From the NCBI RefSeq assembly GCF_030028105.1, contig NC_092378.1, positions 100,305,731 through 100,369,730 of the forward strand: DNA of 64,000 bases, in the 5' to 3' direction. Below, piece after piece: positions 13,224 through 62,885 of this stretch. The DNA comes from Mobula birostris. Taxonomy: Eukaryota. The notes under the pieces are model-generated. The model saw only the letters and a program-made list of their open reading frames with translations, ran no database searches and was not told the DNA's origin. How positions within the stretch are numbered: the first letter of the stretch is position 1; every line of letters starts with the position of its first letter. Position numbers and translations under genes: made by a program.

Positions 13224-13738
13224 CAGAATTCTGCTTCTCCAGCCCTTTACCTATTGTACCTATCACCTCCCAGCTTCATATCCCTCTCCCCCACCCACCT
13301 GATTTCACCTATCTCCTTCTAGCTTGTAGTCCTTCGCCCTCACTCCACCTTCCTACTCTTAGCTTCTTCCACCTTCCTTTACAGTCCTGATGAAGTGTCT
13401 TGTCAACAGAACGTCAATTGTTTATTCATTTTCATAGATGCTGCCTAATCTGCAGAGTTCCTCCAGCATTTTCTACATGTTCTCTCCTATTGGTTTGAAA
13501 TGCAATCAGAACATAGGAGGTGACGGCTACTCATTCACAAAAGGCTCCTAGTAAATAGTTTTGAATTATATGCAGTATTCCATTCGATCCCCAGTATCAT
13601 TGAATCTATTTTATTACACATCCTTTCTCATTATTCTGCTACCAATGCCCTTGCTGGAAGCAGCAATGGCACAAAGGAGTGTTTTGTGAAATGATTGCCA
13701 CGGTCCGTAGTTCCAAAGTTAAAACAGCTGTTCCTTAC

Positions 13739-13826
13739 AGACTGGGAATAGGCCTTCTGGCAGACAGTGCCAGGGTAGCTTTCACTTAAATGGATCCTCT
13801 TGAGCAGGTGCCCAGTTTTCAAGTTC
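13739..13826 (-). CDS. PALB2: PALB2 coding exon 12 (human exon 11)
   Basis: NLKTGHLLKRIHLSESYPGTVCQKAYSQS, 88 nt as in human. AG and GTAAG junctions. Confidence 0.95.
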
Positions 13827-14607
13827 CTAAGAGATAAACCAATAAAAACATCAATTTCGACAGTGTTTCAGCCTCTGCAGTACCTGAATAACACCCATTC
13901 AATAATGTCAAATAATTTATTCCCAACAGAGAATATGGAGAATGAAGAAGAAAATGCCTTCAGTGCTTAATAACTACTTTTATTTAGCTATTTATCAGAA
14001 CTCCCAGAACAGCCTCTGCAGGCTTGTCATACTTACATTTTTTAAGCGTATATTGTTGCTATTTGGCAAATGAGACAAACTGATTTTTTAATGTATTAAA
14101 ATCTAAGTAACGTTTCTTAGAAGTGTTGGCCAAGGAAACAAATTTCCCATCATCAATTTGAACAATTGGGCATGTTCAAAGGCACATTTCCAGGATGGTG
14201 GGGCACAGCCCAAAAAAATGCTCACATCTTTGTTTGAGAACAAAAGGGTACTCACAACCACGTTAATATGAAGGCAACAATGAGAACAATGGGGGCAACA
14301 GCTGGGGAAGAAATAGAGCCTGCAAAGCAGGTCGCTGTTGAAATTATAGAGAAATGCTTGAAACACAAGTATTAGTCCATGACTTCTAATCACAACTCAC
14401 CCACTCCTCTTCCATAGGACGTATAAATCTAGCCAAGAGGGAGACGAGGCTTTGATTTGAAAAAAAGACCCTCCTAACAATACAGGACTCTCTCAGCATT
14501 GCACTGGGATATAAACTGAGGTTGGAGTTTATCTGACTCATAGGCCAGCATGCTATGGCTTATGGTGATATTATTGATAAAGTAACAAACTGGGATCAAG
14601 TTCTCAC

Positions 14608-20141: not shown

Positions 20142-20929
20142 CTATAAACAAAGATAACACTACTCATCCTCCCGAGACTGATGAACCTTTGCATAGATGT
20201 CTCATGCCAGCAGCAAAACTGGTTTACCTGGATAGTGTCCTTTCCCTCAACATGCAAACCATGAAAAAAGTACCTACTGCAAAATTAAGGGTAGCCATGG
20301 AAAGAACACTCGTGATAAAAAAAGGCACTGTGTTTGCACCAGAGCAAATACATATTTGCATTTGTTCTGCTCACCTACCCTCAACATTCTTTTGTCCAAA
20401 GAAAGCAGATGCAGCCCCTTAAATCTACCCTTGTAACTATAGTCCCTTATCCCAGAAACAATTCGCATTAATTTATTCTGGACCTCTCTAATGTCTTCAT
20501 ATCCTTCCTACGTGACAACTGTAATGCTCCATTTGAGGTTGAGCAGTTTTTCAAAGCTTTAGCATAACTTAACTGGTCATTGTAAGGACTGGAACTCTAA
20601 ATAAATAAACTTTTCTGCTTTTGCACCCCATTTCCCCATTGACAAAGCCAAAATTGTGTATGGAGTCAAAAGAGACTACAGACCGATGGTATCTCCCTTT
20701 ATCTTTCAGTCCAGATGAAGGGTCTCAGCCTGAAACCACAACTGCCTATTTCACAGACGATCCCCGATTTGCTGCGTTCTTCCATCGTTTTGCGTGTTGC
20801 CCAAGATTTATTACCTACATTCTCACTTTTACTTCATTTTCAGAGACAACACCACTGTAGTGGCTTGTATCACTTGGAGTGCAGGAAGGACATAGACAGC
20901 CTAGTGACATGGTGTCAATACAACAATCA

Positions 20930-25500: not shown

Positions 25501-25932
25501 TAATGGTTCTATAGAGATCTCATTTTTTCTTTAAAGAAATCCTATTGCATATTTATTGAAGAGAAAAATACAATTGACTTTTGGATTAGGTAGAAAATAG
25601 ACTGTCATACTTCCAGGGACTGATTAAATGGCAATGTGTGCTTACTCTCTTAGATGACACACTGAACCATTCTATTTTCTGCTCTCTTGTGGATTATTTG
25701 AACCTCTCTGGTTTTAGACACAATGTCTGTAGAGAACAGTCACTATACTTAAAGGCTTCCAGTGGCCGTGAAGTGTTTTTCAGAGAATATGCAAAATTGT
25801 ATGAAAATAAAAGTTCTTTTTTACTTTTTTCTAATCAAAAATAAATGAGCTTTGCTTTCAGAGCAAATCATGCATGAGACTAGCAGTCAAATCAATTCAA
25901 GTCCAACAAACCACAGTGTATTCGGTGCTCAC

Positions 25933-27678
25933 CTCCTGAGAGCTTCACTCTCCTCCTGGGCTGAGACACTGGCAACTCTGTCTGCTCTCGGTCCAAACCA
26001 ACCCCCAATGGAAGTGACCACCTTGTGTCATTTAAACGCCGCTTCAAGGCGGTGTCATCAGAAGAATCCTGCTGAGTTTCCGGGATCATGTCCTGACTGT
26101 CAATATCACTATTTGTGCTTGATAGCTCAGGCATACTCACTGCAGATTTAACTTGTGCTATCAACAGATCATTTGTGTCTTCTTTACAAGGTTTTATCAA
26201 CACATCATTAGTCTGAATTGCGTTAGATTTCTGCAGTGGTTCTACTTGTTCATTGGCTTTGTTTTGCAATGGGCTGGAATTCTTCAGAGTGAAGTTAGTA
26301 GTCCCCGAAAAGTGATGACTATCCATGTTATTTTCAGTTTCTCCATCGAGTTCATTAGAGTCAGGCATTGTCTGGCATGTATTAATTTCATTCCTCTTGA
26401 CGTCACCTTCAACCTGAACATCAGAAGGCAGAGCAATCTGAACATCGCTGGGAACTCTGTGGTCATTTGAATTCTTCTCCACAGACTTCTGTGGAAAATC
26501 AGTCAGCTGGAACTTAGTACTTTCTCTTCTACCTCTTTTTCTTCCTTTCCTTTGGCTTGATTTAGTGCTCTGGGAATTATCACTCACATTACAACGATCT
26601 TGCAGGGTAGGCTGCAAGGAAGTTGAACCAGATTCTCTGGCACCACCTTCCTGACTATTAAAAAGTAACAACGTATCACAGGTTTCTGCTTCACCCTTTG
26701 GGGTGCCTTCTACAGGACTGCTCTGGTTATGTGTGGATTTCCTGGGTCTTCCTTTCCCCCCATTTCTGGACTTTCCCAACTGGTTATGAATCACTGCGTC
26801 CAGATCCACCTGTCGCTGACAACTGGCCATTTGGCGAGTTGTCCGAACGTAGTACTCGACAGGAAAGATAAGTCCTTCAACAAGTGTACAAGACTTCAGT
26901 GGGCTATTTCCCGGAGACCTACACACAGTGGTAGCTGCTTGCTGCTCACCTGGTTCTACTACAACTCTCTCATCCTTAAGGTTGGATTCAGAAGCTTCAC
27001 TAGGGTCCTTAGAGCAATTTGGCTTTGCTTCTGGCAGCGTAGCATCTTCAGTTGCCACTGCTGAAGAGCAAGCTTCATTATTGCACATCGGCCCTCCTGA
27101 GGACTTGCCTTCAGGACAGTGAGAATTAGAGTCACTTGCTAGTCTTGTGTTGGGTGTAATCACACAATTATCTTCTATTTCCTGTGCTCCATTCATTAAC
27201 AATGCTGAGTTCCCCTCAGATCGGGGGAGTGCATCGAGCTTTGTGTTCTCTTCAACACATCTATCAAGAATCTGGGGGACATTAACTCTGTTACTGATGA
27301 GTGGATCCAGTGTTTCCATTTTTTTAACACAAGGCTCTCCACTGGCAGCCAAAGGTTCATCTGACTCACTGGTTAATTCACACGCTCTTTTCAATACTTT
27401 GCATGACCTCTTTTTTCTTAGTTTCAGACGACTTTGAACTCCTCCTTCTGTCCTTGTGATGGGATTAATTTCTTCAGCTGCAGGACTGCAGGGTTGAGCT
27501 GAAGAGTCAACACTTTTGCAGGTGCCCATTAAAGACTCATTTGAATGCTTAATAATTTCTGGCTCAATGCTGAAGGTTATGGTAGAATTCTTTTCCTTGC
27601 TTTCTTCTGCTGGAACTTGACTTTCCTTAAAAGGAGAGCTGGACCAATATGTCCCCAAAATAGAGGGATATTCATTTC
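25933..27678 (-). CDS. PALB2: PALB2 large coding exon 4 with ChAM motif
   Basis: ChAM SCTLVEGLIFPVEYYVRTTRQMASCQRQVDLDAVIHNQL at ~26777..26893. 1746 nt, phase 1-1. Acceptor ctttttaAG, donor GTGAG. Confidence 0.95.
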
Positions 27679-28146
27679 CTTAAAAAGAATCAAGAAAGAC
27701 ACATTAGATCCTTTCCTAACCCTTCAGAGAAACAGAATGAAACAGGGACATAAACATCTTACTGACAAAAGAACCATACAGGGAACGGGCCTCAAATTGT
27801 GAAAAGCGTAAGTTAGGAAACGCAAGTTAGTTAATCAGCAAAGAAACAGGATTAATAGAACAGAAAGCAAAGGTGTTCCCCTCAGTGCATTAGCTTACAA
27901 CTCCACACCCTTAACGCAGACATCAGTACATACATGCATTACATAGAAAGCCAAACATAGGACAGTTGAGGAGCAGGTTGGCTGTACGCATTCAGTTATA
28001 CAGCCTGCATATGCCCTTTAGGGTTAACACTCCTCGCTGGAACATGGGAACTTAAGAAAATTCTTCACCGTGGCCCATCATAAATGAAATATCAATGAAA
28101 AGGCACAATCCAGTGTGAGGCTGAAACCATTTTACTGTGGACCTAC

Positions 28147-31252: not shown

Positions 31253-31635
31253 GCCACACGGGGAGCACTGGACACCATAGACAGCCCTGGCAGATTCGTA
31301 GGTGAAGTGTTGCCTCACACGGAGGGACTGTTTGGGGCCCTGAATGGAGGGGAGGGAGGAGATTTATGGGTAGTTGCTGTCCTTTGGCCACTTGCAGGGA
31401 TAAGTGCCGAGTGCCCAGAGAGAGATTGGTGGGGAGGGACAAATGGACAAGGAAATCATGGAGTGAGTGATCCCTACAGAAAGCCGTGGGGGTGGGGGGA
31501 CAAATAGGTGCAGAGGAGTTTTGGTGATAGGATCCCTTTGGAGATGGTGGAAGTTGCAGAGACTCGTAGGGTGGTAGGACAAGAGGAACTCTATCAGTGT
31601 TAAAGTAGCGGGAAGATGGGGTGAGTGTGGATGTT
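31253..31635 (-). mobile_element. Penelope-like fragment
   Basis: Reverse complement of the region 35870..36250 (LSYHPTS..HLQRDP..GTYPC). Confidence 0.7.
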
Positions 31636-32004
31636 TTAAATCTTTTAATGTTATAACCATTATCTTCTAAATGTTCCCCAATTAAAAATTAAAGGCTTTA
31701 AGGTTTATTTTATTGTCAGCAAGTATGCATGCAGAATACAACACTGAGACTTGTCTTTTCCAGACAGCCATGAAATACAGAAAGAATATGGAGTTGTTCA
31801 ATGAAAAGATATCAAACACCCAGCACAAAAAAGAAAAGGAAACAAAAACTTGCAAACCCCAACCCCTCCCTCACACAAAAACTAACAGATTGTTCACCTG
31901 GAAAACGGCAGCTAGAACATCAAACCTCAAAACCCCAACTCCCTCCATCGCAAATAAAACTAACGTATCGGCCACTTGACCCAATTCATTCCACAGAAAC
32001 AGAC

Positions 32005-32565
32005 TCAGCACCATTGGTCTCTCCTTGTGGGCTTGGCATGTCATCAAAACCTTGACAAACTTCTATAGACGTGTGGTGCGAAGGGTGCCGAGCAGAAAAT
32101 CACACCAAAGGTAGTGGATTCAGCCCAGTACAGCACGGGTAAAATGATCCCAAACATTGAGCACATCTACATAAAATGTTGTCATAGAAAAGCAGCATCC
32201 ATCATGAAAGATCCTCACCTCCCCAGGCCATACTCCTTTCTCACTGCTGCCAGCAGGTAGAAGGTACATAAGCCTCAGGATTCGCACCACCAGGTTCAAG
32301 AAAAGTTACTACCCCTCAACCACAGGTTCTTCAGGGGATAACTACACTCATTTAAGGACTGTTTTGTTGATGCATGTTATATTATTTCATGCTCGTTATT
32401 TATTGCTATTTACTTATATCTGCAATTGCACATTTTCTTTACAGTTCCTGATTTCCAGTTTACATTTACTGTTCTATACATTTGCGAAGTGTGCCCGCAG
32501 AAAAAGAATCTCAGGGTTGTATGTGGTGACACGCATGTACTCTGATTAATACATTTTACTTTGAT
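32005..32565 (+). mobile_element. Rex1-type LINE 3' end, ~130 bp from the PALB2 exon 2 donor
   Basis: GMSSKTLTNFYR and AASIMKDPH..GHT..SLLP.GRRY motifs. Confidence 0.7.
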
Positions 32566-32695
32566 CTTTGGGACCAGAAACAAACTGCTCTAGAAAATCA
32601 CTTTGGGCACAAGATACCCCAGCGTTCGAGGATCGTAAAAGCAGCTCCTCAAAACCCTTAGATATCCCCGATTCCAAGAAAGAAATGTCATTCAC

Positions 32696-32755: not shown

Positions 32756-32833
32756 CTGGGGCGAAAAGGAAGAATTAATGTCGGTCCTTTCTGTTTTACC
32801 GCGAGTATGATCTGGAGTTCGGCACTGGCTCAC

Positions 32834-34839: not shown

Positions 34840-36830
34840 TACCAGGTAAATTTGAGAGCAGGGTGGAAGTCTCACTTGCATGGGTCCCAGCTATGCCTGC
34901 CTTTTCGTCGGCTATGTGGAACAATCTATATTCCAAGCCTGCACTGGTATCACTCCCGATCTTTTCCCGCGCTACATTGGCCACTGCATTGGTGCTGCTT
35001 CCTGCACCCATGCAGAGCTGAGCTCGTCGTCTTCACCCTGCCTGGAAATTTACCTGCTCCATTTCTGACACCTCAGAATCAGGTTTATTATCAACAGCAT
35101 GTGATGTGAAATTTGTTAATTTAGCAGCAGCAGTTCAATGCAATACATAATCTAGCTGAGAGCAAGGAAAAATAAATAAATAAAATAAAACATCCTAAAC
35201 AAGTAAATCAATTGTGTATATTGAACAGATTATTTTTAAAAATGTGCAAAGACAGAAATACTGTATATTAAAGAAAGTGAGGTAGTGTCCAAAGCTTAAA
35301 AGTCTATTTAGGAATCGGATGGCAGAGGGGAAGAAGCTGTACCTGAATCACTGAGTGTGTGCCTTCAGGCATCTGTATCTCCTACCTGATGGTAACAGTG
35401 AGAAAAGTGCATGCCCTGGGTGTTGAAGGTCTTTAATAATGGACACTGCCTTTCTGAGACACCGCTTTCTAAAGATGTCTTCGATACTTTGTAGGCTAGT
35501 ACCCAAGATGGAGCTGACTAGATTTACGACCTTCTGCAGCTTCTTTCGGCCCTGTGCAGTAGCCCCTCCATACCAGACAGTGATGCAGCCTGTCAGAATG
35601 CTCTCCACGGTGCAACTTTTCTCAATCTCTTTCTTTGGAAACAGCTTATCCATTGATGTCTATTATAAACCCACTGACTCTCACAGCTACCTGGACTATA
35701 CTTCTTCCCACACTGTTACTTGTAAAAATGCCATCCCCTTCTCTCAATTCCTCCGTCTCCGCTGCATCTGCTCTTGGGATGAGGCTTTTCATTCCAGAAC
35801 TTCTCTTCCTCCATCATCAATGCTGCCTTCAACTGCGTCTCTTCCATTTCATGCACGTCTGCCCTCACCCCATCCTCCCACCACTCCACCAGGGATAGGG
35901 TTCCTCTTGTCCTCACCTACCACCCCATCAGCCTCCGCATCCAGCACATAATTCTCTGTAACTTCCGCCGTCTCCAAAGGGATCCCACCACCAAGCACAT
36001 CTTCCCTCTCCCCCCCCCACTTCTACTTTCTGCAAGGATCGCTCCCTACATGACCTCCTTGTCCATTAATTCCTCCCTACTGATCTCTCTCGGTACTTAT
36101 CCTTGCAAGTAGAACAAGTGCTACACCTGCCCCTACACCACCTCCCTCACTACCATTCAGGGCTCCAAACCATCCTTCCAGGTGAGGCGACACTTCATCT
36201 GTGAGTCTGTTGCAGTCATCTACTATATCCAGTGCTCTCATTCTGGCCTCCTGTATATCAATCTGTCCGCCAGAAAAAGCAGGATCTCCCAGTGGCCACC
36301 CATTTTAATTCCACTTCCCATTCCCATTCTGACATGTCAGTTCATGGCCTCCTCTACTGTTGCGATGAGGCCACACTCGGGTTAGAGGAGCAACGCCTTG
36401 TATTCTATCTGGCTAGCCTCCAACCTGATGGAATGAACATCAATTTCTCAAACTTCTGGTAATGGTCTCCCCACCATTCCCCATTCTCAATTCCCAATTC
36501 TCATTTCTCTCTCTCACCTTATCTCCTTACTTGTCCATTATACCTCCCTGTGGTGCTCTTCCATGGGCTTCTCTTCTCTCCTATCAGATACCCCCTTCTC
36601 CAGCTTGTATCTCTTTCACCAGTGAACTTCCCAGCTCTTTACTTCACCCCTTCCCCCACCTCAATATCACCCATCACTATGTTTCTCCCTCCCCTCCCCC
36701 CACCTTCTTCCTCTGACTCCTCATCCTTTTTTCTCCAGTCCAGATGAAGGTTCTCGGACTGAAACATGACTGTACTCTTTTTCCGTAAATGCTGCCTGGC
36801 CTGCTGAGTTCTTCCAGCATGTGTGTGTTA
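34840..36830 (+). mobile_element. Penelope-like element (RT, GIY-YIG, terminal repeat), split by a Rex1 fragment at ~35073..35616 (-)
   Basis: MGPSYACLFVGYVEQ, YYKPTDSHSYLDYTSSH, AIPFSQFLRLR, LEEQRLVFYLASLQPDGMNINF. Degenerate hammerhead at 36737..36771. Confidence 0.85.
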
Positions 36831-43200: not shown

Positions 43201-43938
43201 TTACAAATAAGAAATTTTTTAAATATTAAGTTGCCTACCTTTTCGACTTCCAATCCTTCTGGCACTCTTGATAAAATTTTAGGCTTTAATCCTTTGCAGA
43301 AGGGATTAATAGCAATAATTTATGATATAATTATGAAATTACAGCCAGATATATCTGACAAAATTAAAAATGAATGGGAAAGGGAACTTCAACCTTCCCT
43401 ACCTACAGAGAAATGGGATAAAATTTTTCAATTAGTTAGTACTTCTTCTATATGTGCTAAACATACTTTAATACAATTTATAGTACACAGAGCTCATATG
43501 TCCAAAGATAAACTAGCTCGTTTTTATTCCCATATAAACCCTACTTGTGATAGATGTCACTCTGAAGTGGCTTCTTTAACTCATATGTTTTGGTCCCGTC
43601 CTCTTTTGGAAAAATACTGGAAAGACATTTTTGACATTATTTCCACAGTTCTATGTTTCGATTTAAAACCCCATCCTATTACGGCAATCTTTGGATTGCC
43701 AATGGTAGAACGTAGATCTTTGTCTTCAGCCTGTTGAATGATAGCTTTTGTTACTTTAATGGCGAGAAGATCTATTTTGTTGAACTGGAAGGAAACTAAT
43801 CCTCCAACTACATTCCAATGGTTTTCTCAAACCATATTAAGTTTAAATTTAGAAAAAATTAGAAGTGATATTTTTGACCCTTTAGTTAAATTTGAAGAAA
43901 CTTGGAAACCTTTTATGCAACATTTTCACATGATGTAA
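40203..43938 (+). pseudogene. L1 ORF2 (APE, RT, CCHC), disrupted
   Basis: SWNTNGL, VQETH, GGDFN, SRIDY, SDHAP, KAPGPDG, LDAEKAFDRV, QGCPLSP. YADD is mutated to YAAD. Frameshifts near 41150 and 41830, stops at 41656 and 43735. Confidence 0.92.
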
Positions 43939-45491: not shown

Positions 45492-47125
45492 TAATCACTC
45501 AGTCTGTAATTGTACAGTATGTTGACCATATGTAGGAGGCAGGAACTTTCAGCAGAGTTCAGTGACTGTCTGAGCTTTGGAAATGTGTTGGGGATTGTAT
45601 GTGGAAATGCTGTGGTTGGAGGCGTGGGGTATCAGTTAGGAATGAAGAAGCTGGATAAATGCTTTGTGGGTTTAGCAAGTGTAATTCTGGATGCTGTGCC
45701 TTTTAATGTGCCTTTCAACCCAGCAAATGTCCAAAGACAGCGCTCACTTTTAACATATGGAAAATAATTAAGTATTTGTTAAATGTTATATAATTTGTAG
45801 CGTCTGTTTTGTATTCGAGGAGGTGTACTGGGGTCTTTCCAGAATAACAATGAAAGTTCGCTTATTGTTTTATGTCGCTATTGGACATTAGTTTAACCCC
45901 TACCAGCATGCGGTAGCCTCTTTGACAGGCAGCTCTTCAAGCATCCTAAACCGTCATTCCCCTTGGTGCACGGTTAACAATTAATAGAACAATAAATATT
46001 GACTGGTCTTTATTTATTGTCATGGGATTGTTGAGTTTTTTTCCTCCAGGGTAAGGGAGTCTGAAACTAGAACTGGCCTTCAGTTCTTTATTTCCTCTTG
46101 AATGGAGCACACTCCCTTGGCATTGCATTGAATCTCTAGCCCTGGGTGGAAGAACCCCTTTCAAATTGCTCTGTCATTTTTAATCAACTATCTCTAGATC
46201 TTCTTTTACCTCTTTTAGAAATGTCAGAGTTGTGTGGCATGGACCAAGTCATGCATGCTGACCGAGTAGCCTCCCTGAGTAGTCCCATCTGCCTTTCCAA
46301 TCAATTTGTATCGAAATGTCTTTTAAATGTTATAATTGTACCCACCTCTAAAGCTTCCTCTGGCAGCTTGTTTCATATATGTACCACCCTCTGTGTGGTG
46401 CAAGTTGCCCCTTGGGTCCTTTCTAATTCTTTTTCCTCTCACTTTAAAATTATGACCTCTAGTTTCAGACTCCCTTACCCTGGAGGGGAAAAAAACTAAC
46501 CACCCCCTTATCTAGTTCCATCATTACATTATAAACTTCTATAAGCCCATACTTGGCCTCCTGCTCTCAGCCTACTTTGCCTCTCCTTATAACTCAAGCC
46601 CTCCAGTCCAAGTAACATCCAGTGAATCTTCCCTAGCCCCTTCTGCAGCTTAATTACATCCTACCTATAGCTGGGTGACCAGAACTGCACACAATACTTC
46701 CAAGATTGGCCTCACAAATGTCTTGTACATGTTTAACATGACTTTCCAAATGCTTTATTTGGTGACCTGACTGATGAAGAAAAGTGTGCCAAATACCTTA
46801 ATGACCACCCTGCCTAACTGTGTTTCTGCTTTCAGGGAACTATGTACCTGTACCACTACATCACTCTCCATCAGAGCCCTGTGCCCACTAATTTGTATTT
46901 GCTCTTTGAATTATTTGTATCAAACCCTCTGCACTTTTCAGTATTAAACTTAACTTGCCATGCCACAAGTCTATTTGTATCTTCTTTGAGTCTTGTATAC
47001 AGTGGATTCTGGTTAATTGGAACACTTTGAGACCAGTACATTTTGGCCTATGTAAGTGGCTGTCCCAATTAGCTGGTTTCATGGCATATTTTTTTAAAAC
47101 TACCGTTTAACTGAATAACAAGTTA

Positions 47126-47726
47126 CAGGTGTGCACTGCTTAACATCCATTCGGACAACGTCCGATCGCATATATGATCGTAGTCCCGATTGGAGAATGT
47201 GACATAGCGGACGTAACCAATCTTGTGTATCACGCATCTCTTGAGTGTAGTAGCGTTATCTCTCTGTTTAATTTTCTTTGGAAAATATTACCAGTGCATC
47301 ATGGCTTCCAAACGCAGCAAAACCACTCCTAGTGATAGCAGCAGCAAGAGGCAAAGGAAAAGTATTGATTTGGAAGTGAAACAAAAGGTTATTAAACAAT
47401 ATGAAGGTGGAAAACCAGTGAATGCTATTGCTCGGGATTTAGGCATGTTGCACTGGACAATCACGACGATCCTGAAAAACAAAGAAAAAATTCTCGAAGC
47501 TGTTAAGGGATCAGCCGCACTGAAAATTACAAGGCTCACAAAAATGCGAGGGGGACCTATATCGGATATGGAGAAATTGCTGATGACATGGATTTAGTCA
47601 GTACAGGTACACTACAGTACTCCATGTAGGTTTGCTAAGTATATAATATGGTGTTCGCACAACGTCCAAATCACATAATGTCCGATTTCACAGAATGTAT
47701 CGTGGACGTTAAGCAACACATACCTG
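47126..47726 (+). mobile_element. Tigger-type deletion derivative, copy A, encoding only the N-terminal psq-HTH/CENP-B region
   Basis: TA..CAGGT TIRs. MASKRSK..RKSIDLEVKQKVIKQYEGG..IARDLGM..MEKLLMTWI. Confidence 0.88.
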
Positions 47727-48095
47727 TATGTAGTTAATGAAATGTGGAACAAATCAGAACACTACAAATGCTACTACAGGTCTACGAAGCTGTGTATTAG
47801 TTTCTAATAGTTATCAACAGAGGAACTCAGCCTGTGTATGCTGCTCTGTAAATGAACAAAATTAATACTACATGCAGATGATGGACTGCCTTCATATAAT
47901 GCTTTCAATGATCACTTCTCCATAATCTTCATAGTGCCTAACTTGTTGAAGTAGTGAAATTGTTTCATTTATATTCATGGCTCTTTCTGGCACCTCCAAG
48001 CCTGAATCCTTGAAACTGCAGTGAGCATAACAGTTCTGAATTGTCTTACTGCTTATTTCTCGCCAACACATGCAACTCACACTATTTTAAAAACT

Positions 48096-48316
48096 CATCA
48101 AAGTTGCTGGTGAACGCAGCAGGCCAGGCAGCATCTCTAGGAAGAGGTGCAGTCGACATTTCAGGCCGAGACCCTTCGTCTAGTCCTGATGAAGGGTCTC
48201 GGCCTGAAACGTCGACTGCACCTCTTCCTAGAGATGCTGCCCGGCCTGCTGCGTTCACCAGCAACTTTGATGTGTGTTGCTTGAATTTCCAGCATCTGCA
48301 GAATTCCTGTTGTTTG
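48096..48316 (+). mobile_element. 221-bp palindromic Penelope terminal insert with a 14-bp TSD
   Basis: TSD CTATTTTAAAAACT at 48082..48095 and 48317..48330. Arms 48096..48180 and 48188..48272. Confidence 0.9.
48182..48217 (+). ncRNA. Minimal type I hammerhead ribozyme motif (Penelope type)
   Basis: AGUC-CUGAUGA-AGGGUCUCGGCCU-GAAAC-GUC-GACU. Stem I is AGUC/GACU, the core is intact, stem III is a loopless palindromic ACGU, and cleavage is predicted after 48213. Activity untested. Confidence 0.75.
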
Positions 48317-49066
48317 CTATTTTAAAAACTGTTCGCTCTAAGCACAGTGTAGCGTCTAACAGCCACACAAGTGCACGTGACTGACGCTAGTTGGAAACTG
48401 TTCTGCAACAGTCTCCTGTCCCAATTAAATAGTGTAGTGTCCCAAATAAATGAAGGGAATCCTGGCTATTTTCTTGATTAGTTTTTGTTCTTTAAGAGGT
48501 GTCCAATTAACCAGAATCCACTGTACAAAGTTCTGCTGGAAATAATGCGCTGACACTCAATCCAAGGCAGTAACATACTGAAAAGGAATGGTTAAAATTT
48601 TGAGGAGCATCACTACACCAACGATTCCAAAAGTCAAACTGCTTATTCTCTGTTACTTAATCAATTTTCTGTCCATATCATGAGTCCCATTAATTCCATG
48701 ATCTTCAATCCTGATAACTTGTCTGTTATGTGCATTTTAGCAAAAGCCTTTCGAAACTTCATTGAAGTCAACAATTTGCCTTTAACAAATCCAGGCTCTC
48801 TCTTCTTAATCAATCCATACACATCCAAATGACTGATAATTCTGTTGTTAATTGTTTCCCCATCAGAGAGGTGAAACTGATTGGTTTATGACTGGTGGAT
48901 TTATTCCTGCACTTTAATAAGGATGTAACATGTAAAATTTTCTATCCATTGGTTCTAGCCTTAAATCTCGAGAGGTTTGTAAGTTTGTGGGTAGGACCTC
49001 TGCAGTTTCCTCTCTCAGCAGCCGAGGATGATTTATCCATTTTAAGTGCAGTTAGCTGTTCTAGTA

Positions 49067-49672
49067 CAGGTATGCGTTGCTTAACGTCCACGATACGTTC
49101 TGTGAAATCAGGCGTTACGTGATTTGGACGTTGTGCGAAAACCATATTATATACTTAGCAAACCTATATGGAGTACTGTAGTGTACCTGTACTGACTAAA
49201 TCCATGTCATCAGCAATTTCTCCATATCCGATATAGGTCCCCCTCGCATTTTTGTGAGCCTTGTAGTTTTCAGTGCAGCCGATCCTTTAACAGCTTCGAG
49301 AATTTTTTCTTTGTTTTTCAGGGTCGTCGTGATTGTCGAGTGCGACATGCCTAAATCCCGAGCAATAGCATTCACTGGTTTTCCACCTTCATATTGTTTA
49401 ATAACCTTTCGTTTAACTTCCAAATCAATACTTTTCCTTTTGCTTCTTGCTGCTGCTATCACTAGGAGTGGTTTTGCTGCGTTTGGAAGCCATGATGCAC
49501 TTTACGGTAGTATTTTCGAAAGAAAATTAAACAGAGAGATAACGCTACTAAACTCAAGAGTTGCATGATACACGAGATGGGTTACGTCTGCTACGTCACA
49601 TTCTCCGATCGGGACTACGGACGTATATGCGATCGGATGTTGTCCGAATGGATGTTAAGTGGTGCACACCTG
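49067..49672 (-). mobile_element. Tigger-type deletion derivative, copy B, inverted relative to copy A
   Basis: TA flanks at 49065-66 and 49673-74. Peptide near-identical to copy A. Confidence 0.88.
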
Positions 49673-49946
49673 TATCTACACTTTATCAACGTTTCCTTCA
49701 TCCAGAATCTCGATGAGGGAAGATTCTCATCAAGAGAATCATGATAAAGATTTACCATGTCACAAGCCTGTTTCTATCATCTTTGAGCTGTGTATACAGT
49801 GGATTCTGGTTAATTGGAACATATTGGGACCAGTACATTTTGGCCCATGTAAGCGGCTGTCCCAATTAGCTGGTTTCATGAAATTAAAAAAGCTACCATT
49901 TAACTGAATAACAAATTATATATTTAAATGAAATACAAAACAAGTT

Positions 49947-50142
49947 GGAGAAGACAGGAGGGGGAGGGATGGAGCCAAGAGCTGGGCAGGTGATTGGCAA
50001 AAGTTCTTAGCTCCATCCCTCCCCCTCCTGTCTTCTCCTATCATTTTGGATCTCCCCTCCCCCTCCCACTTTCAAATCTCTTACTAGCTCTTCCATCAGT
50101 TAGTCCTGACGAAGAGTCTCAGCCCGAAACGTGGACTGTACC
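49947..50142 (+). mobile_element. Penelope terminal fragment with a 5' fold-back and a hammerhead variant
   Basis: Inverted repeat 49947..49983 / 50002..50038. AGTC-CTGACGA..GAAAC-GTG-GACT at 50102..50137. Confidence 0.75.
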
Positions 50143-51674
50143 TTTTTGAGAAATTGTGTGGCTTGTTCGAATTGTGTAGTTAATGCAAAAGTTGTGTTGT
50201 TAAAATGCTTCATTGATATAAGGAGCATTGGGACGTCCCAGATGGTAAACTTTTCTAGTGTAAATTAATGCTGGTAATATCAAAAGGTTGAGGATTTATT
50301 TGTGTATTAAACTGTCATTTTAATCTTGCCTGAATCCTGAAAAGTGGACTGATACTGACCTCACCATGGTGCCTGATCTACTTTCAAGTTTATTTCTGTT
50401 TCGATCTTGATTGTATTAAATTATACAATCCACACCTGTTCATTTAAACTTTTTTGTGCTCAAATATTGACCTTTCAATCAAATCAGTCAGTTCAAGTGA
50501 AATAAACACCATGTGCATACAATTTCTATTTTTAAAAAAAACTAATTTCAGAAAAGAACATCTTTGTATTGGACATTGAACTGATTTCATGATCCTTTTC
50601 CTAATATGAAATAAATATATGAAAAAGAAAAATGCTCAACTTTGCACTGGATAAATGCACTTAGATAATAGCTGTTTTCCACGAACTCTATTATAGCTTA
50701 ATCGGAATGGTGCAGTGTAGTATATAGAACTGCAGAGGGCATTGCTAAGAGAATCACACTGCACTTTTTAAGTGCTATTGAACAGTACAGAATCAATTCT
50801 AATGCATCAATTATTTTCCCAGTATCATGCACATAGCAAGTGATGAGTTATCCAGCACAATTTTCCAGCATAAATGGCTATTGTCTGTCACTCACAACCA
50901 AAACTTCATCTACAACCTCCCACATTTTCTATTCAAACACCATTTAAACATACACACTTAATGGCAGAAAACTTTCAAAGACAGCTCTTAACCTCACTGG
51001 ATACACTTCCCACACCTTACAAGATGCTGCAAGTTTTAGTTAGCGGTAGCATAGTATTTAATAGTGTAAAGCTCCATTTCATAAATGGAGTGAAGGCAAC
51101 ATTTTTTCCTCCATTGTTTTTATGGTGTTTTCTGGAGGACAGAACATCAGTATCTTCCTGCCGTGCTTTTTAAATGGCTATCCTGATGACTCTCCTGCCA
51201 CGGAGGCAAATCTAATAATAAGGATGACATGGACCAATATCTTTACATCCCACTCAGTAAATGTAAAAGAGTTTTTTTTCTCCTACAAGCTACCCCTCCT
51301 TCAAAGCAGCCACTGTCTGGTTGTCATGGGGAGCCCGTGCTATGGCTGCAGTGCTGTTCCTTCCTCTTAGGAAACCCTTCCGAACTGAGGATGAATTATA
51401 TCCGCTGGTTCTGAAAATGACTTCTGAGTTGTTTGGAAACCACAGACTACCGCAGGTTGGGTAGGTGGTGGCTGACTTGGAGGAGAGTTGGATAATTTGA
51501 GAGGTGATCCACTCCTTCCATTGCTAATGAAGAGCCTTTCTGTGCTCTTGACCTCCTACAGGTTCTTGCCTCCTGCTCCATTTTGAGCAGTCATGGGCCA
51601 GAGGTTCCCAGAATGCAATTCTTCAGGGAATCTTTGAGCACAACCTCGATTTACTTATTTATTTTTTACACAAG

Positions 51675-51840
51675 AGATTCTGCAGATGCTGGAAGTAAAG
51701 AGCAACACACACAAAATGCTGGGGGAGGTCAGGCAGCATTTATGGAAATTAATAAATAATGGATGTTTAGACTCTTCATCAGGACTGGAAAGGAAGGGGG
51801 AAGAAGCCAGAATAATATGGTGGGGAGAGGGGAAGGAGTG
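51675..51840 (-). mobile_element. Penelope terminal fragment with a deleted hammerhead
   Basis: Minus strand CCAGTCCTGATGAAGAGTCT followed by the AAATGCTGCCTGACC tail. Confidence 0.65.
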
Positions 51841-56848: not shown

Positions 56849-59800
56849 GATGGGCCTTTCCTCCAAAGCACCACGAGAAAAGGTATGTTAAGGGAAAGTG
56901 AATCAGTTTGTGGGTGAGGGGGTGCGGAGAGGGAATCTCTGCATTTAAACAGCACTTCCAGGTGAATGTGAGCAAGCACATGGATGCATAATGATCCTGA
57001 TACTGAGTTTGCTAAAGGTTATTTCTGTTTCTCTTCAGTTTCCTTTATGACTTTTATAGGAACAACAGCAGTGATCCCAACCCTTCCTCCCTCTGCCCTA
57101 CTGCACCATCCTGCATTTCTGAGGCTCATTGAGGGACTTGCACTATTTTTGTCAGTCACTTTCAGTAATAAATGACACAAACAGCTTTCTGAAATCCATG
57201 ACCAGAGCAAGCCCAGCAGCTCCCTCTCCTAAGGATTGAGGACAGGCTTATATTTGGTTCTCCTCTGTGGCACTCCCAGCAACTTTGCTAACTCCAATTC
57301 CTGTGAAAACAATCAATAGTTAGCTCACAAATTTAGATTTGGAGGTAATATTTATCAGTCTCAAACAATACAGAGCTAAGGCAGGTAGACAGCTAAGAGG
57401 ACAATAGGTGCAGAACAAGTGCGCAATACCGAACGTTAACAAGTACTAGGCCACTAGGCCAGTGGTGGGCAGCACACGCCACATTTGAGTAGGGTTTCAT
57501 TTATACCAAAATTTGTACACAGTATCAATGTTGAAAAATTTATTCAATCCTGGACAGAGTGATATGAGATTAAATTGGGAATGATCTATGTGCCTTGGTA
57601 CTGTGTCCTGACTAATCTTCCCTTAACTAAACAGATCAACAGCTGATTTATGATCTTGCATTATCCAAATTGGCTGTAGCATTTAACCCTTTTATTAATG
57701 GGTGCACAGTAATTCATTGTGTAACTGACAATGTTAAGTATTCAATAAGATCCCAAATTGTATGCCTTTGCATGGAAGACAGCCCTTGTACTTGGATGTC
57801 CACAATTATTCTGCTCTTTTAATTCACCTTCTTGCCCACATGAATTACTTGATTTATTTTTTTTTGCCGGAACATACAGGTTTAGATTAAGATTTTCAGC
57901 ACAGACTGAGGTAATTTGACCCAGGTGGTCCTTACTGATGTCGGTGCTTCACACATGCCTACTCCATCTCTCCTCTTTATGTCATCTAACCCTTTTGGGA
58001 ATTTCACTCCAGGGATAATGGTCTGGTCTGATTTTTAAACTGCTCTTGTTTTTGTACGTGAGTGGGGTGTGGAATGTATTAGGGGGTTATCATTGACATT
58101 CATCTAAGAAAATTTAATTCTTACATATTCATTTTCAGAAAGCTGTTTGTGTCATTTATTACTGAAAGTGACTGACAAAGGTGGGTCAATGCATTTGGGG
58201 TACAGATTAATTGGAATTAGTAGAATGGCTTCCTCCTTTTCCTATATACCAGCACGTAGTCGGTAATGTGCTTGCCATGGGATCATATACAAAGGTTTGG
58301 GCCCAAAGGTTTTCTGTGACATTATTAAGCATAGTTGTTACTCTTTTGTCAAGTCCACAGTGCTACAAACCTTTTAAAAATGGATAATATAAAAAAAGTT
58401 CCTTCTCATAATAGGCTGACGATGTTAGGCAATTCTCATTCTGATCCTGAATGTCTGTTATACTATGTTCTCAGAATTTAAACTCTTTAATTTAACTCTT
58501 TAATTATCTCACTATAATTTTTTTCTCTCGTTGCAGAACCTGTTTTACTGAGGACCTGAAAGTGAACAACTAAACAAAGTTTAGACGCTGCCTGGATATT
58601 CCCACTTGATGAAGTGGGTCAGGCAAAGAGAAAATTATGCATTATAAGTAGTTGTTTCTTTGGTCTGGAAAAGACTGGCTGCTCCATCACACTTGAAATG
58701 ACAGTGTGTGCAACCTTCAGTACATAACTTAATTTTATTGGCCATGTTCAGTGCCACAAAAAAACTGAGCGTAATATATGCTGTAATTATTCATGAAATT
58801 AGTTCTGAGACATTCAATCACTAAGCTTCCTGCATATTCAAGCAAGGTTAATTGCATTAATCCGGTTCTTGTTAGAAAAGACATTTTGTTGTGGATGCGT
58901 GTAATTGGTGCTGTTTCTCAGAAAAGTGATGCTGAGTCTCTTTACTGATTGTATGAAATGGCACCAACCTTTGACTGACAGTATAACTATCACCTGTTAA
59001 GATTCATGCTGTAAAACAGGATACAGTAAAAGTGGCTGGGGCAACAAGTTGTACTTCTAATAACTAGGTAATGCAGAACAAATCTAGCAGTAACCACCAT
59101 GAAGTGACATCACATAAATGAAATGCAATCAGACATATTATAAATCATACACCGTCCAGTGAGGCAAGTGGTGATACTTGGTGCCAAGTGGCCTTTTCAG
59201 ACAATTTCTCTTCTCATCAACATCCCAGTCATTTACTTTTTACACATTTATTAATGCTTTTGCCAATTAAAATGGAACGTGTCATCTCCGTTAAATATCT
59301 TAGTTATTTTGCCCTAAAACATATAGTGAATTTTCTTAAGAATTAAAAAAAGATGTTGTCCATCTTGTTGATGCATAACATGGCAAAATGTTAGTTTATG
59401 CAGGTGCTGATCCAAAGAACATAATTCACCACAATTTTCAAAAAATGTATGGAAGAATAATCTATAGATGAAAACCTCCTGTCCTTAAATGCAAAAATGT
59501 CACAGTATTTCCTGCATGTTTGCTGCATTCCTGACTACCTATTTATACTTTCGATAATATTGTTCAGAAAAACTCTTGGTGGTGACAGGTGAAGTTTATT
59601 TTCTCATTGAGGACCATTTTCCAATTTTTGGACATTTCATAACTATTCATGATTGAAAATTTACAGAAGTGCTTCTTGACTGACTTCTTTCAACACTTGT
59701 ATGTGGTATTGAGGATTTAAGTGTTTAACCATTTCATCCTCAAAATCGGTTTTATTATCACTGATTCGTCATGAACTGTATTTGTGGCAACAATTACAGT

Positions 59801-61283
59801 GCAAAACAATTATGAGTTACAAAAAATAAATATATAGTTTAAAAAAAAAGAGCCAGAAATTCTAGGAATTGTCATTCCTTTAACATATTTTCCCTTAAAT
59901 TTCACTTGAGATTTACTTCGAGTAGCTCTGCCTGTGTTATTTTGCAGATGAATGGCTGAACAACTTGCCAACTGTTTCAATCTTGGATCTTAAAGGTGTT
60001 TTCTTTAAAACCAGGTGCATCTAGTCTTTCATTTGTTTTCTCTACCAACAAATTGAAAAGAAAATTTTGACACTTATGGTAGAATTGATATGTTTGTGAT
60101 GTGTCTAATATAGTTATAGTTTTTGGCAGTTTACTTGTGAAAGCATCCACAAAATATCAAGATCAAAATATTGCTTGCCTCTATTCTACAGTAGTAACCT
60201 TCCTCCAGTGTATTTGATGGATGAATAAAAGCAAGCCAGGTATCAGCTGGGTATATTTCTCCTATTGTACAGTTGCTGTGCCTTTACAGCAAACTTACAC
60301 TTATTCCATATTCACTCAAGCTTGTCACTCTTCACACATGAAGAGTAAAATGACCAAATATTAAAGAAATTAGAATATTACTGGGCACTGCAGGGATTCG
60401 TTTGCCCACCGTTATAAATGACATCTGAATCCTGTCATTTTTAGCCTCTTTAAGCCTGTGAATGTATTTTAACATTATCAATTGACAACGCCAAAAATTT
60501 GTTAGTTGAAGTAATTTTTGATGCCTTTTTTCAGTCTGACAGATCCCTCTGTGGATTTTACATAAACTGCTTTCATAACATTAATAATTGCTACATTTTA
60601 CCTTTACCTTGAAAATACATTCTCTCTCCTTACTTTGAGTGACACTAGTTTTCTTCTGATACTTCTCATTTGAAATTCATTTGGAGCTAAATATATCTGA
60701 CGTAACGTGAAAGCCGTCAAATTTTTGATATCAGATGAAAGGAAGCATACATTGGAGGGGCTTGTATGTATGTGACAGGATCTAATTTGCAAAAGGCCAA
60801 AAAGTTGGCAAATGCCAGAATCTCTTAACTGCAGCCTGAAAATTGCTATTGAGCCCACCTTGCCTGTATCATCTGTCTAAAAGATATATTTTTTTCTTGT
60901 TTACCTGGTTTTCCATATGCAGATAGTACACATTTAAAATTGTATCTGGGAGCCAGGGTGAGAGAGTTCAAATGCTAGGATTTCTGGTTCGATAGCATTC
61001 TCGAGCCTTAATTTCCCAACTTTTCAAAGTTAATTGGCTTAGATTGAGATAACTGCCCAGGCTATTGATAGGTTGTCATAAGATTTGGTGATTTCTGCCC
61101 CTTTTACTCCTTACTATCCCTTCCATACCCAACCAGGCTTTAGAATTTTGTTCCTCAAAGGGCAGTGGAAGCAGAGCCTTTGAATGTTTTAAGGTATGGG
61201 TCTTCTGGATTAGTAAGGGGATGAAAGGTTACCATAGGACTATGGGTTTGCTTTTATAATCAGATCGGCAGCCATATTCTTGT

Positions 61284-62885
61284 TCAGAATCAGGTTTATT
61301 ATCACCAGCATGTGTTTTGAAATTTAACTTAGCAGCAACAGTTCAATGCAATACATAATGTAGAAGTTTTTTTTAAAAAAAAGATAAAAATAAGTAAATC
61401 AAGCACAGTATATGCATATTGAATAGATTAAAAATTGTGCAAAAACAAAAATAATATGTTAAAAAGGTGGGAAGGTGTTCATGGGTTCAATGTCCATTTA
61501 GTAATCGGATGGCAGAGGGGAAGAAGCAACACTCACAACACGCTGGAGGAACTCAGTAGGTCGGGCAGCATCCGTGGAAAAAGATCAGTCAACGTTTCGG
61601 GCCGGAACCCTTTGTCCGAGGGGAAGAAGCTATTCCTGAATCACTGAGTGTGTGCCTTCAGGCTTCTGTATCTCCAACCTGATGGTAACGGTGAGAAAAG
61701 GGCATGCCCTGTGCGTTGGAGGTCCTTAATAATGGCTTTCTGAGACACCATTCCTTGAAGAAGTCCTGGGTACTTTGTAGGCTAGTATCCCAAGATGGAG
61801 CTGACTAAATTTACAACCCTCTGCAGCTTCTTTTGGTCCTGCAGTAGTGCTCACATACCAAACAGTGATGCAGCCTGTCAGAATGCTCTCCACAGTACAT
61901 CTATAAAAGTTTTTGAGTATTTTTGTTGACGTACCAAATCTTTTCAAACTCCTGATGAAATATAGTCACTGTCTTGCTGCCTTTATGGCTGTGTCGATAT
62001 GTTTGGACCAGGTTAAGTGCTCAGAGATCTTAACACCCAGGAACTTGAAACTACTCACTCTCTCCACTTCTGATTCCTCTATGAGGATTGGTATGTGTTC
62101 CTTTGTTTTACCCTTCCTGAAGTCCACAATCAGCTCTTTCATCTTACTGACGTTGAGTGCCAGGTTGTTGATTTGACACCACTCCACTAGTCAGCATATC
62201 TCACTCCTCTTCGCCTTCTCGTCACCACCTGAGATTCTACCAACAATGGTTGTATCATCAGCAAATTTATAGATGGCAGTTGAGCTATGCCTAGCCACAC
62301 AGTCATGGGTGAAGAGAGAGTAGTGCAGTGGGCTAAGCACACACTCCTGAGGTGCACTAGTGTTGATCGTCAGCGAGGAGGAGATATCACCAATCTGCAC
62401 AGACTATGGTCTTCTGCTTGGGAAGTCAAGGATACAATTGGAGACAGTGGTACAGAGGCCCCAGTTCTGTAACTTACCAATCAGGATTGTGGGAGGGTTG
62501 GTGTTAAAGCTGAGCTATAGTCAACGAACAGCATCCTAACATGGGGTGTTTGTATTGTCTAGGTGTTCTAAGGCCACGTGAAGAGCCATTAAGATTGCAT
62601 CTGCCATTGACCTATTGTAGCAATAGGCAAATTGTAGTGGGTTCAGGCCCTTGCTGAGGCAGGATTCAATCTAGCCATGACCAACCTCTCAAAGCATTTC
62701 ATCACTGTAGATGTGAGTGCTACTGGGCAATGATCAGTGAAGCAGCTCACACTATTCTTCTTATAATTGTTGCCTTTTTGAAGCAAGTGGGAATTTCCAC
62801 ACACAGTAGTGAGAGGTTGAAAATGTCCTTGAATACTCCTGCTGGTTGGTTGGCACAAGTTTTCAGAACCTTACCAGGTATTCTT
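61284..62885 (-). mobile_element. Rex1/Babar LINE RT and 3' end
   Basis: PVALTSTVMKCFERLV, APQECVLSP, KFADDTT, KELIVDFRK, CTVESILTGCITVWY. Confidence 0.88.
61528..61617 (-). mobile_element. 90-bp Penelope terminal insert with a 13-bp TSD, inside the Rex1 copy
   Basis: TSD GAGGGGAAGAAGC at 61515..61527 and 61618..61630. Minus strand AGGGTTCCGGCCCGAAACGTTGACTG plus the GATGCTGCCCGACC tail. Confidence 0.85.

Follow-up and report, generated by a model that had tools for sequence, protein, structure and literature searches.

The window analyzed here is a 64,000-nucleotide stretch of Mobula birostris DNA (RefSeq assembly GCF_030028105.1, contig NC_092378.1, positions 100,305,731 to 100,369,730 of the forward strand). 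Scattered along it are copies of minimal type I hammerhead motifs. They belong to the 3' terminal repeat of a Penelope-like element whose protein has a GIY-YIG endonuclease at its C terminus (Table 1). Most of these copies are short and decayed, two of them continue into coding sequence, and two others are short inserts enclosed by target-site duplications.

Table 1. Pieces of the Penelope-like family and neighboring features in the window; signed distances are counted from the predicted ribozyme cut
Feature	Coordinates	Strand	Basis and remarks
Old decayed copy	3193..3248	+	E 1.4e-6; 5' end uncertain, -6 to -35
Tail-only fragment	10468..10507	-	E 1e-5; 5' end near +28
GIY-YIG and first UTR part, 5' part of 13383 copy	11069..11522	+	Collinear with 36153-36548
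Repeat of ~1.7 kb interrupting 13383 copy	11523..13214	.	Same family as 35076-35618; boundaries approximate
Remaining UTR with the decayed 13383 hammerhead and the short 3' end	13215..13481	+	Sequence comparison
Decayed copy (20708)	20694..20800	+	5' end near -46; short 3' end
Penelope linker/GIY-YIG fragment, no adjoining 3' end	31253..31640	-	tblastn
Penelope RT core fragment, 5' end of 36737 copy	34874..35075	+	tblastn, P0001-P0009
Repeat interrupting 36737 copy, likely 3' end of a non-LTR retroelement	35076..35618	.	Boundaries approximate
RT thumb, C-x4-C-x2-C linker, GIY-YIG	35619..36462	+	E 2e-98 to P0004; 83% over 65 aa
3' UTR rich in pyrimidines, with the decayed 36737 hammerhead and the short 3' end	36463..36829	+	Sequence comparison
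Left 14-bp target-site duplication	48082..48095	.	Exact match to 48317-48330
Inverted arm, 85 nt	48096..48180	-	5' end core G5 (-26); 3' end +59 (short site)
Forward arm, 136 nt	48181..48316	+	5' end -33; 3' end +103 (long site, with tail)
Minimal type I hammerhead	48182..48218	+	Descriptor match. Stem I is formed by 48182-85 (5' strand) and 48214-18 (3' strand); between them lie CUGAUGA (48186-92), an additional A, stem II (48194-205), GAAA, CG, and UC, with the cut predicted after 48213
Right 14-bp target-site duplication	48317..48330	.	Partner of 48082-95
Inverted UTR piece of 50102 copy	49942..50001	-	5' end near -152
Forward arm of 50102 copy	50002..50146	+	5' end near -132; GUG triplet; 3' part lost
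51765 copy, ~55 nt UTR, stem II deleted, long tail	51670..51838	-	5' end near -87
90-bp 5'-truncated copy	61528..61617	-	Starts at core G5 (-26); ends at short 3' site

Hammerhead Motifs

All seven motifs listed in the original prediction, which had been made from the sequence alone, are present where it placed them. A profile built from these seven copies returned 11 matches in the window at E < 0.001, the best match in the reversed window having an E value of 1.3. Seven of the 11 are the input copies, matched by construction; the others are the inverted arm (48090-48182), 3193-3248, and two on the reverse strand, 10468-10507 and 49942-50002. A weak match at 50335 (E 0.86) was excluded from this set.

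A descriptor of the minimal hammerhead (i.e., CUGANGA, GAAA, an NUH triplet, and stems I and II) is matched once in the window, by the 48182 copy, and in none of 20 block-shuffled windows. The other six named copies fail it, so that 48182 alone combines an intact core with an NUH triplet, as had been claimed. Decay has taken several forms: the 20708 and 36737 copies have a CAGAUGA box and a broken triplet, GAAA is broken in the 13383 copy, the triplet of the 50102 copy is GUG, stem II is lost at 51765, and in the 61590 copy C3 and U4 are missing together with the stem I 5' strand. Even the 48182 copy carries a caveat, because its stem II closes with a G10.1-U11.1 pair instead of the conserved G-C. 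Rfam at gathering thresholds gave no match in the window, and isolated folding of the seven motifs gave no stability above that of shuffles (z -0.7 to 1.8), so that folding energy is not counted as support for the motifs.

Would these copies cleave? The genomic copies are predicted not to, because the motif needs a dimer, most cores are decayed, and a transcript of the fold-back at 48096-48316 would hide its motif in an 85-bp hairpin (predicted energy -182.9 kcal/mol). Single minimal hammerhead motifs do not cleave (PMC4209133).

Association with Penelope Coding Sequence

The link to a Penelope RT/GIY-YIG that had been suggested for these motifs is borne out in cis, since two of the copies, 36737 and 13383, adjoin Penelope coding sequence, a point overlooked in the original prediction. 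In both, the hammerhead lies in the terminal repeat that follows the ORF. Searches by tblastn with ray proteins (P0001-P0009) cover 34874-35075 and 35619-36456, the best match being to P0004; RT and, after it, a C-terminal GIY-YIG thus run in the same orientation from 34874 to 36456, and the coding region within 35619..36462 has stops, frameshifts, and one deletion. On the far side of the repeat that interrupts it, the 13383 copy continues collinearly in 11069-11522 (scores of 99 and 65, where shuffles reached at most 50 and 38).

A CX2-5CxxC linker between RT and endonuclease is found in the 36737 copy and in P0004, P0006, and P0007. P0004 has both the Cx4Cx2C and the CCHH motif, the latter complete; the CCHH of the 36737 copy has one altered Cys and a deletion of one His. 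Pfam matches of the relatives are weak (RVT_1 in two of nine and GIY-YIG in two of nine, all below the curated cut-offs), the ORF pieces of the window have no Pfam match on their own, and no relative of P0004 with a solved structure was found by sequence. No full-length element was seen in the window, and an upstream terminal repeat is therefore not in view.

Ends of the Copies

At their 3' side the copies share two end sites, about +59-65 and +103 from the predicted cut and hence ~40 nt apart, the two arms at 48182 using one each; the downstream extension is the known Penelope "tail". The 5' ends are another matter. Among 11 ends in the window, they range from about -1350 to +28, with six upstream of the motif, four inside it, one downstream, and none at the cut, and nine of the 11 arms are shorter than 220 nt. 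Breakpoints gathered at the ribozyme had been expected by the original prediction, which took even spread along the element to mean ordinary truncation; the 5' ends are indeed scattered, and a bias toward the motif's edge is possible though doubtful, three to four of the 11 lying in the motif (33 nt) where 0.8-1.8 would be expected (P between 0.01 and 0.43 according to the null).

In place of a genome-wide plot of breakpoints, the contigs of four runs were fitted to the repeat: three of DNA type (X1, X5, and X12) and one presumed, as a guess, to be an RNA run (X9), from which nothing is concluded on expression. Loose ends were taken from the best 24 of 847 rows and joints from the best 15 of 98, and this sampling is still compatible with a several-fold enrichment at a single place. 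In all four runs the cut site (48214) is absent from the best six loose-end places. The sixth place holds 295 of 7096, 323 of 7607, 103 of 3407, and 20 of 833 partly fitting contigs, which limits loose ends at the cut site to at most 2-4% of such contigs. On the 3' side, contigs come loose behind 48317 in X1, X5, and X9, and behind 48315 and 48279 in X9. The main 5' loose ends, at 48181-84, terminate in UTR-like pyrimidine letters, so that most such copies extend upstream; with this reference, true 5' ends at -33 to -30 and UTR-bearing copies look alike. Among the best 15 of 98 joint rows, the fold-back joints have nine distinct resumption points between +9 and +51. Summed depth in X1 has no step at 48213/48214 (5.49 to 5.54 million), a measure by which the parts of the repeat cannot be ranked and which is given no weight here.

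Two Short Inserts

Both inserts that had been described as bounded by target duplications are so bounded, the 221-bp one by 14 bp, exactly repeated, and the 90-bp one by 13 bp (61515-27 and 61618-30). The latter sits in a non-LTR retroelement, and a homologous copy of that retroelement near 35325 holds the 13-mer once, as an empty site. A boundary at the ribozyme had also been claimed for them. It does lie inside the motif in both, yet the predicted cut itself is 26-33 nt farther downstream. Both begin at core G5, and the chance of any identical pair is 0.11-0.17. In the 221-bp insert the inverted and forward arms differ at three of 85 places. Summed contig depth of the window's inverted arm is ~0.1% of the motif's, so that the 221-bp unit itself is not the amplified form.

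A second fold-back, at 49942-50146, had been overlooked; its center lies 130-150 nt upstream of the cut and ~100 nt upstream of the motif. Convincing target duplications were not found for the copies at 36737, 20708, 51765, 50102, 3219, and 10476, nor was more homology found within 3 kb upstream of 51765, 20708, and 3219. For the 13383 copy, a 9-bp near-duplication taken as a target site was dropped, because the copy continues upstream to a 5' end at about -650.

Origin of the Short Inserts

The motifs are 3'-terminal-repeat hammerheads, and the short inserts are probably ordinary 5'-truncated copies of the normal element RNA rather than of RNA cut by the ribozyme. None of the inserts begins at the predicted cut, and they are therefore likely to be the truncated and folded-back copies that Penelope elements ordinarily make. 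An inverted 5'-truncated copy plus a tail of 30-40 bp is a described Penelope insertion pattern (PMC8557442, PMC3846280), and 48096-48316, with its ends at +59 and +103, follows it.

How might such copies arise? For an anole element, reverse transcription from an internal start, extension of both strands, and a ribozyme dispensable for insertion have been reported, with no RNA-seq ends at the cut (PMC11167929). By analogy with the in vitro work on that element, the endonuclease would nick both target strands ~14 nt apart, and reverse transcription would begin at an internal point of the RNA (60-65 or 103 nt beyond the ribozyme) and in most cases terminate early. As the ribozyme is only 65-135 nt from these start sites, many short copies would have their ends within it or close by. 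The 221-bp fold-back could form if both nicked strands were extended, one from each start site, and the products joined head to head; alternatively, the cDNA could snap back before two short products were so joined.

The original prediction went further: self-cleavage would release short, perhaps circular RNAs that the Penelope protein mobilizes in trans, as in a retrozyme-type family. Minimal hammerheads are indeed present, and vertebrate retrozymes derive from Penelope terminal repeats and were detected in the one chondrichthyan sampled (bioRxiv 10.64898/2026.07.22.740005). Moreover, one of 12 listed joints resumes at 48214 with one letter between, and four joints among the listed rows, from 48218-48233 to 48181-83 and of a kind not given, could be rare tandem motifs. 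Against this, a cleavage product starts at +1, whereas both inserts retain their stretch upstream of the cut, no 5' end in the window lies at +1, and the 3' ends are not at the cut site either. The tandem arrays that had been proposed as a check were not found in the window, there being no tandem units with a complete hammerhead among 13 TRF rows, and the fold-back has one motif on each strand, so that it offers no dimer in cis. Retrozymes, furthermore, have canonical hammerheads in tandem repeats, minimal ones being the mark of Penelope elements (PMC7229834), and they are non-coding, while two copies here continue into an ORF. With no 5' ends at the cut, a cut site outside the top loose ends, and arrays not found in the window, there is no support for a retrozyme family defined by cleavage, and ribozyme-defined mobilization in trans, largely refuted for the window's copies, is very improbable. 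A short non-coding master (UTR, hammerhead, and tail) that borrows the Penelope protein in a SINE-like manner, with ends not set by cleavage, is a little less remote as the source of some short copies and still unlikely. It would suit the shortness of most arms and the existence of at least two UTR/tail types in the family, and it has precedents in the non-autonomous Penelope-like elements of Chlamydomonas (PMC8557442) and in a rotifer, where terminal repeats sufficed for mobilization in trans (PMC3846280); but no shared 5' end marks such a master, the older tail type is found twice in cis with the ORF, and strong 5' truncation is normal for the class. Least credible of all is the reading of 48096-48316 as a product of misassembly or of subsequent rearrangement of the DNA. 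Hairpins are hard to assemble and no listed contig spans the whole stretch, yet one 14-bp duplication encloses both arms, which differ in sequence and end at different 3' sites.

Ordinary truncation could be joined by one addition, which we regard as possible though doubtful: truncation and fold-back may have a hot spot at the ribozyme's 5' edge, 26-35 nt before the cut, in which cleavage plays no part. A micro-palindrome with a 2-nt spacer is formed there by the GAC of CUGACGA and the three final letters of stem I on its 5' strand; at this place, again tentatively, a cDNA might snap back or two cDNAs anneal, perhaps aided by RT pausing on the folded motif. Palindromes at Penelope junctions have been read as self-priming (PMC3846280), and the shared G5 start of the two inserts fits. 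So do junctions near 48178-48181, within 5 nt of the window's own, which are read as other fold-backs centered at -25 to -35: "48178 left out 5" (4, 11, and 5 contigs in X1, X5, and X12; depth 633, 3396, and 40), which would amount to an almost perfect palindrome, its halves 2 nt apart, "48180 left out 1" (13, 19, and 2 contigs in the same runs), and "48181 put in CC" (two contigs in X1 and two in X9). Both left-out rows mostly exceed the joints listed elsewhere (no more than 4 contigs per run and, in the three DNA-type runs, a depth of up to 174). However, the reference includes this very junction, so that junctions close to it are aligned in a colinear way and clear a 1% threshold where local depth is low, whereas a fold-back elsewhere is seen only with two long pieces on opposite strands. 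UTR letters could align by chance, at most 188 of 56,693 X1 contigs cross either end of the stretch, and the second fold-back of the window is centered at -132/-152. This bias of the test toward the motif edge keeps the hot spot on the doubtful side; joints starting at 48179-80 were kept out of the enrichment argument, because the reference captures only inverted arms ending near -25 to -36.

Comparison with Known Systems

The closest counterparts of these copies are the canonical EN+ Penelope-like elements with a Zn-finger linker (Neptune/Nematis type), with which they share the order RT, Cx4Cx2C linker, and GIY-YIG with CCHH (PMC8557442, PMC3846280), heavy 5' truncation, an adjacent inverted 5'-truncated copy, a tail on one arm, and a target duplication. 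Here, by comparison, the tail is 37-44 nt, the fold-back has no coding sequence, and no full-length copy was seen. The linker motif agrees with the Neptune/Nematis clades, and Neptune would tentatively be preferred to Nematis from the reported vertebrate distribution.

The motifs resemble the minimal Penelope hammerheads (PMC4209133) in being type I, without helix III, with a palindromic ACGU, an extra nucleotide after A9, a stem I of 4-5 bp, and mostly single, dispersed occurrence. They differ in a stem II of ~4 bp, against 7-8 in Schistosoma (PMC4209133), and in the G10.1-U11.1 pair of the 48182 copy. PAc, a Poseidon element of Anolis (PMC11167929), likewise has two fixed 3' ends downstream of its hammerhead and copies not bounded by the cut, but it belongs to the Penelope/Poseidon clade without the linker Zn-finger, and its biochemistry is applied here by inference only. 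Animal non-LTR retrozymes (PMC7229834; bioRxiv 10.64898/2026.07.22.740005) share the type I hammerhead, short non-coding units, and kinship with Penelope repeats; theirs, in contrast, are tandem, canonical, cleavage-bounded monomers, where the present ones are solitary, minimal, and not cut-bounded.

The tail pattern was found in no viral and no metagenome contig. A shorter pattern gave 120 prokaryote-genome loci, dismissed as chance since none extends beyond the pattern (best E 0.009). A protein scan of metagenomes gave 29 loci, fragments of distant relatives, none with a descriptor match. The literature searches returned no description of such hammerheads in rays or of such a family in this lineage.

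As it stands, this is one more Penelope-like family with a known ribozyme, truncation, inversion, and tail, and an ordinary one. Its value is in its scale. If the hot spot is true, it would leave a footprint, open to mapping, of the way in which Penelope makes its inverted ends, and it would give the ribozyme, which insertion in vitro does not need, a non-catalytic role. From one assembled genome, 5' ends and centers of inversion could be mapped at single-base resolution, which bears on two open points of the literature, i.e., the origin of inverted ends and the role of the ribozyme. The material is there, because the family is very abundant, with tens of thousands of repeat-bearing contigs in each of three organisms (56,693 in X1, and 87,550 and 20,569 in the others).

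Hammerhead motifs and Penelope coding sequence

The original prediction described at least seven hammerhead motifs as a dispersed family, whose ribozyme-defined short RNAs are perhaps mobilised in trans, like retrozymes, by a Penelope RT/GIY-YIG protein. The observation is real; its explanation is probably ordinary. All seven motifs (13383, 20708, 36737, 48182 and 50102 on the forward strand, 51765 and 61590 on the reverse) are present where claimed and mutually homologous, and a profile built from them finds 11 matches in the window at E<0.001, four outside the training set (best E in the reversed window, 1.3). In order, they show a short stem I, CUGANGA, an additional A, a stem II of 4 bp, GAAA, CG and UC, which is how minimal type I hammerheads are laid out. 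As predicted, only 48182 is intact, being the sole descriptor match in the window (0 matches in 20 shuffled windows), and the other six cores are broken. Both target duplications and the lengths of the two short inserts, the 221-bp fold-back at 48182 and the 90-bp insert at 61590, agree with the earlier values; the latter has an empty-site counterpart near 35325 in a homologous repeat.

The link to Penelope RT/GIY-YIG was seen in cis, the copies at 36737 and 13383 running on into the ORF. Upstream of the 36737 motif are a pyrimidine-rich UTR and a broken ORF with GIY-YIG, a Cx4Cx2C linker and the RT thumb, and the RT core follows at 34874, beyond an interrupting repeat; in the 13383 copy, GIY-YIG sequence (11069-11522) is reached across a 1.7-kb interrupting repeat. 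According to PMC8557442, this domain order with its motifs is diagnostic of endonuclease-containing Penelope-like elements that carry the linker of the Neptune and Nematis clades. Judged from sequence, the element behaves as an endonuclease-containing Penelope-like element and passes the tests run for one. Its protein has its closest named relatives in two rays, Hypanus sabinus and Mobula hypostoma (9 matches among 265 candidates, 51-68% identity), which makes a ray the likely host. One ray protein (P0008) bears the name "chitinase domain-containing protein 1 isoform X1" but aligns with Penelope RT sequence across most of its length; either the annotation is an artefact or a Penelope copy has been exonised.

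Ends of the copies

Where do the copies begin and end? Here +1 is 48214, the first base past the predicted cleavage site (GUC, ending at 48213). A short RNA made by self-cleavage should begin at +1, yet none of the 11 copies or arms in the window does: their 5' ends, read from alignments and for old copies accurate to perhaps 10-20 nt, lie at about -1350, -650, -152, -132, -87, -46, -33, -26, -26, -6 to -35 (uncertain) and +28. Both short inserts retain 26-33 nt that cleavage would have taken off. The 3' ends cluster at two sites (see table), echoed by loose ends of sequencing contigs: three of the four runs have them behind 48317, and run X9 has them behind 48279 and 48315. The two sites match the optional 30-40-bp tail of Penelope-like elements, which work on an anole element traces to two internal reverse-transcription start sites (PMC11167929).

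Contigs of the four runs (three coded organisms) were aligned to 48160-48345 at 85% likeness, and 56,693, 87,550, 20,569 and 6,047 fitted per run, the count for run X5 meaning at least that many. Breakpoint enrichment at the cut site is not seen among the loose-end rows listed (six per run, 24 of 847), where the site does not appear. Provided that these rows are the largest, the site accounts in the four runs for no more than 4.2, 4.2, 3.0 and 2.4% of the contigs that fit in part, which rules out a dominant cut-site class and is compatible with a modest peak. Among the rows listed, 5' loose ends at 48181-84, the repeat's edge in the reference, carry UTR-like terminal letters, so these copies mostly continue upstream; since letter agreement is only 0.33-0.52, some of them may be true junctions. 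In run X12, the row at 48271 has tail letters from another subfamily.

Among the joints listed, those from an inverted arm resume at 48222, 30, 33, 43, 53, 57, 59, 61 and 64 (+9 to +51), and in one joint table a restart at 48214 is given by one of the 12 rows listed. Contig depth is about a thousand times lower over the window's inverted arm than over the motif; hence what spread was not the 221-bp unit. X9, guessed to be RNA, holds an opposite-strand joint 48183/48225 (one contig, depth 1673; none in the other three runs), which is either a fold-back polymorphism or an artefact of the library. X5 and X12 list five joints of unspecified kind from 48218-48272 to 48181-48186, which could be fold-backs or hammerhead cores duplicated in tandem; in the latter case they would be the sole candidates for dimer cleavage.

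Retrozymes, a possible hot spot and the proposed mechanism of insertion

Non-LTR retrozymes have tandem units, cut-defined ends and no coding sequence, and in the window the element differs in all three. Retrozymes derived from Penelope repeats are reported for vertebrates, one chondrichthyan among them (bioRxiv 10.64898/2026.07.22.740005 and PMC7229834), so even a retrozyme would fall in a described kind. The available part of PMC6155905 does not mention sharks or rays, and no ray description of this Penelope family was found in the literature searched. In fish, Penelope terminal repeats carry minimal hammerheads, chiefly single dispersed motifs of truncated copies (PMC4209133).

Could the motif's 5' edge be a hot spot for fold-back or truncation? 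In favour of the original prediction, G5 is the starting base of two inserts, and three or four of 11 ends fall inside the motif (33 nt), where 0.8-1.8 would be expected (P 0.01-0.43, depending on the null, on counting the uncertain copy at 3219 and on scoring one insert's two arms once). Up to 19 contigs per run show small gaps relative to the window's junction, taken to be additional fold-backs whose centres lie at -25 to -35; one would form a near-perfect palindrome because three stem I letters mirror the GAC of the core. The pattern points to snap-back or microhomology there, in accord with the self-priming idea for Penelope junctions (PMC3846280). However, the second fold-back in the window (50102) is centred ~100 nt upstream of its motif, and since the reference itself favours exactly these junctions and the fold-back reading was made without view of the contig sequences, we consider the hot spot rather doubtful.

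Insertion by an ordinary Penelope-like element would account for the copies as follows. ORF linkage, two 3' sites, scattered 5' ends and target duplications are established in the window. Both target strands would receive staggered nicks, reverse transcription would be primed internally, downstream of the ribozyme, and cDNA synthesis would terminate early; two short cDNAs might then be joined head-to-head, or one might snap back. The fold-back arms at 48182 are mismatched at 3 of 85 places. In the anole element (PMC11167929), both strands are cut and extended, insertion is normal in ribozyme mutants, and zero RNA-seq reads end at the cut. Since single minimal motifs did not cleave (PMC4209133), six of the seven named cores are broken and the 48182 fold-back transcript is predicted to fold into an 85-bp hairpin, the genomic copies in the window should be silent as ribozymes.

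Surrounding genes and repeats

3' sites of the copies and neighbouring features in the window
Feature	Position	Remarks
Short 3' site	~+59 to +68	Inverted arm of 48182, 61590, 36737, 13383, 20708, 10476; alignments
Long 3' site	~+103	Forward arm of 48182, 51765; alignments
First exons, PALB2-like (-) and DCTN5-like (+), head-to-head	32549-33433	Weak PDB and Pfam matches
One repeat family, likely non-LTR retroelement	11523-13214, 35076-35618, ~61280-62125	
~610-bp element, two opposite-orientation copies, 90-96% alike	47121-47728, 49065-49677	CENP-B-type helix-turn-helix short frame in each (Pfam E 1e-8); reads as Tigger/pogo-like deletion derivatives
L1-like element, split into several frames	38608-43737	ORF1, APE endonuclease and RT frames; Pfam
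DDE_3 transposase frame, 4117-4635 (-)	3895-5498	Flanked by 194-bp inverted repeats, 96% complementary; Pfam
47-bp perfect inverted repeats, spacing 938 nt	57148-58179	Probably a young non-autonomous DNA transposon

Many repeats surround the two gene starts. An open frame of 595 aa at 25892-27679 (-) is probably a large PALB2 exon, in keeping with the layout of that gene. The likely non-LTR repeat sits within two Penelope copies and its third copy hosts a Penelope end, a mutual nesting seen three times in 64 kb. Pieces of a DNA-transposon-like repeat (family D6) lie at ~46955-48525 and 49752-49940, and by eye both Penelope fold-backs seem to be in or beside them.
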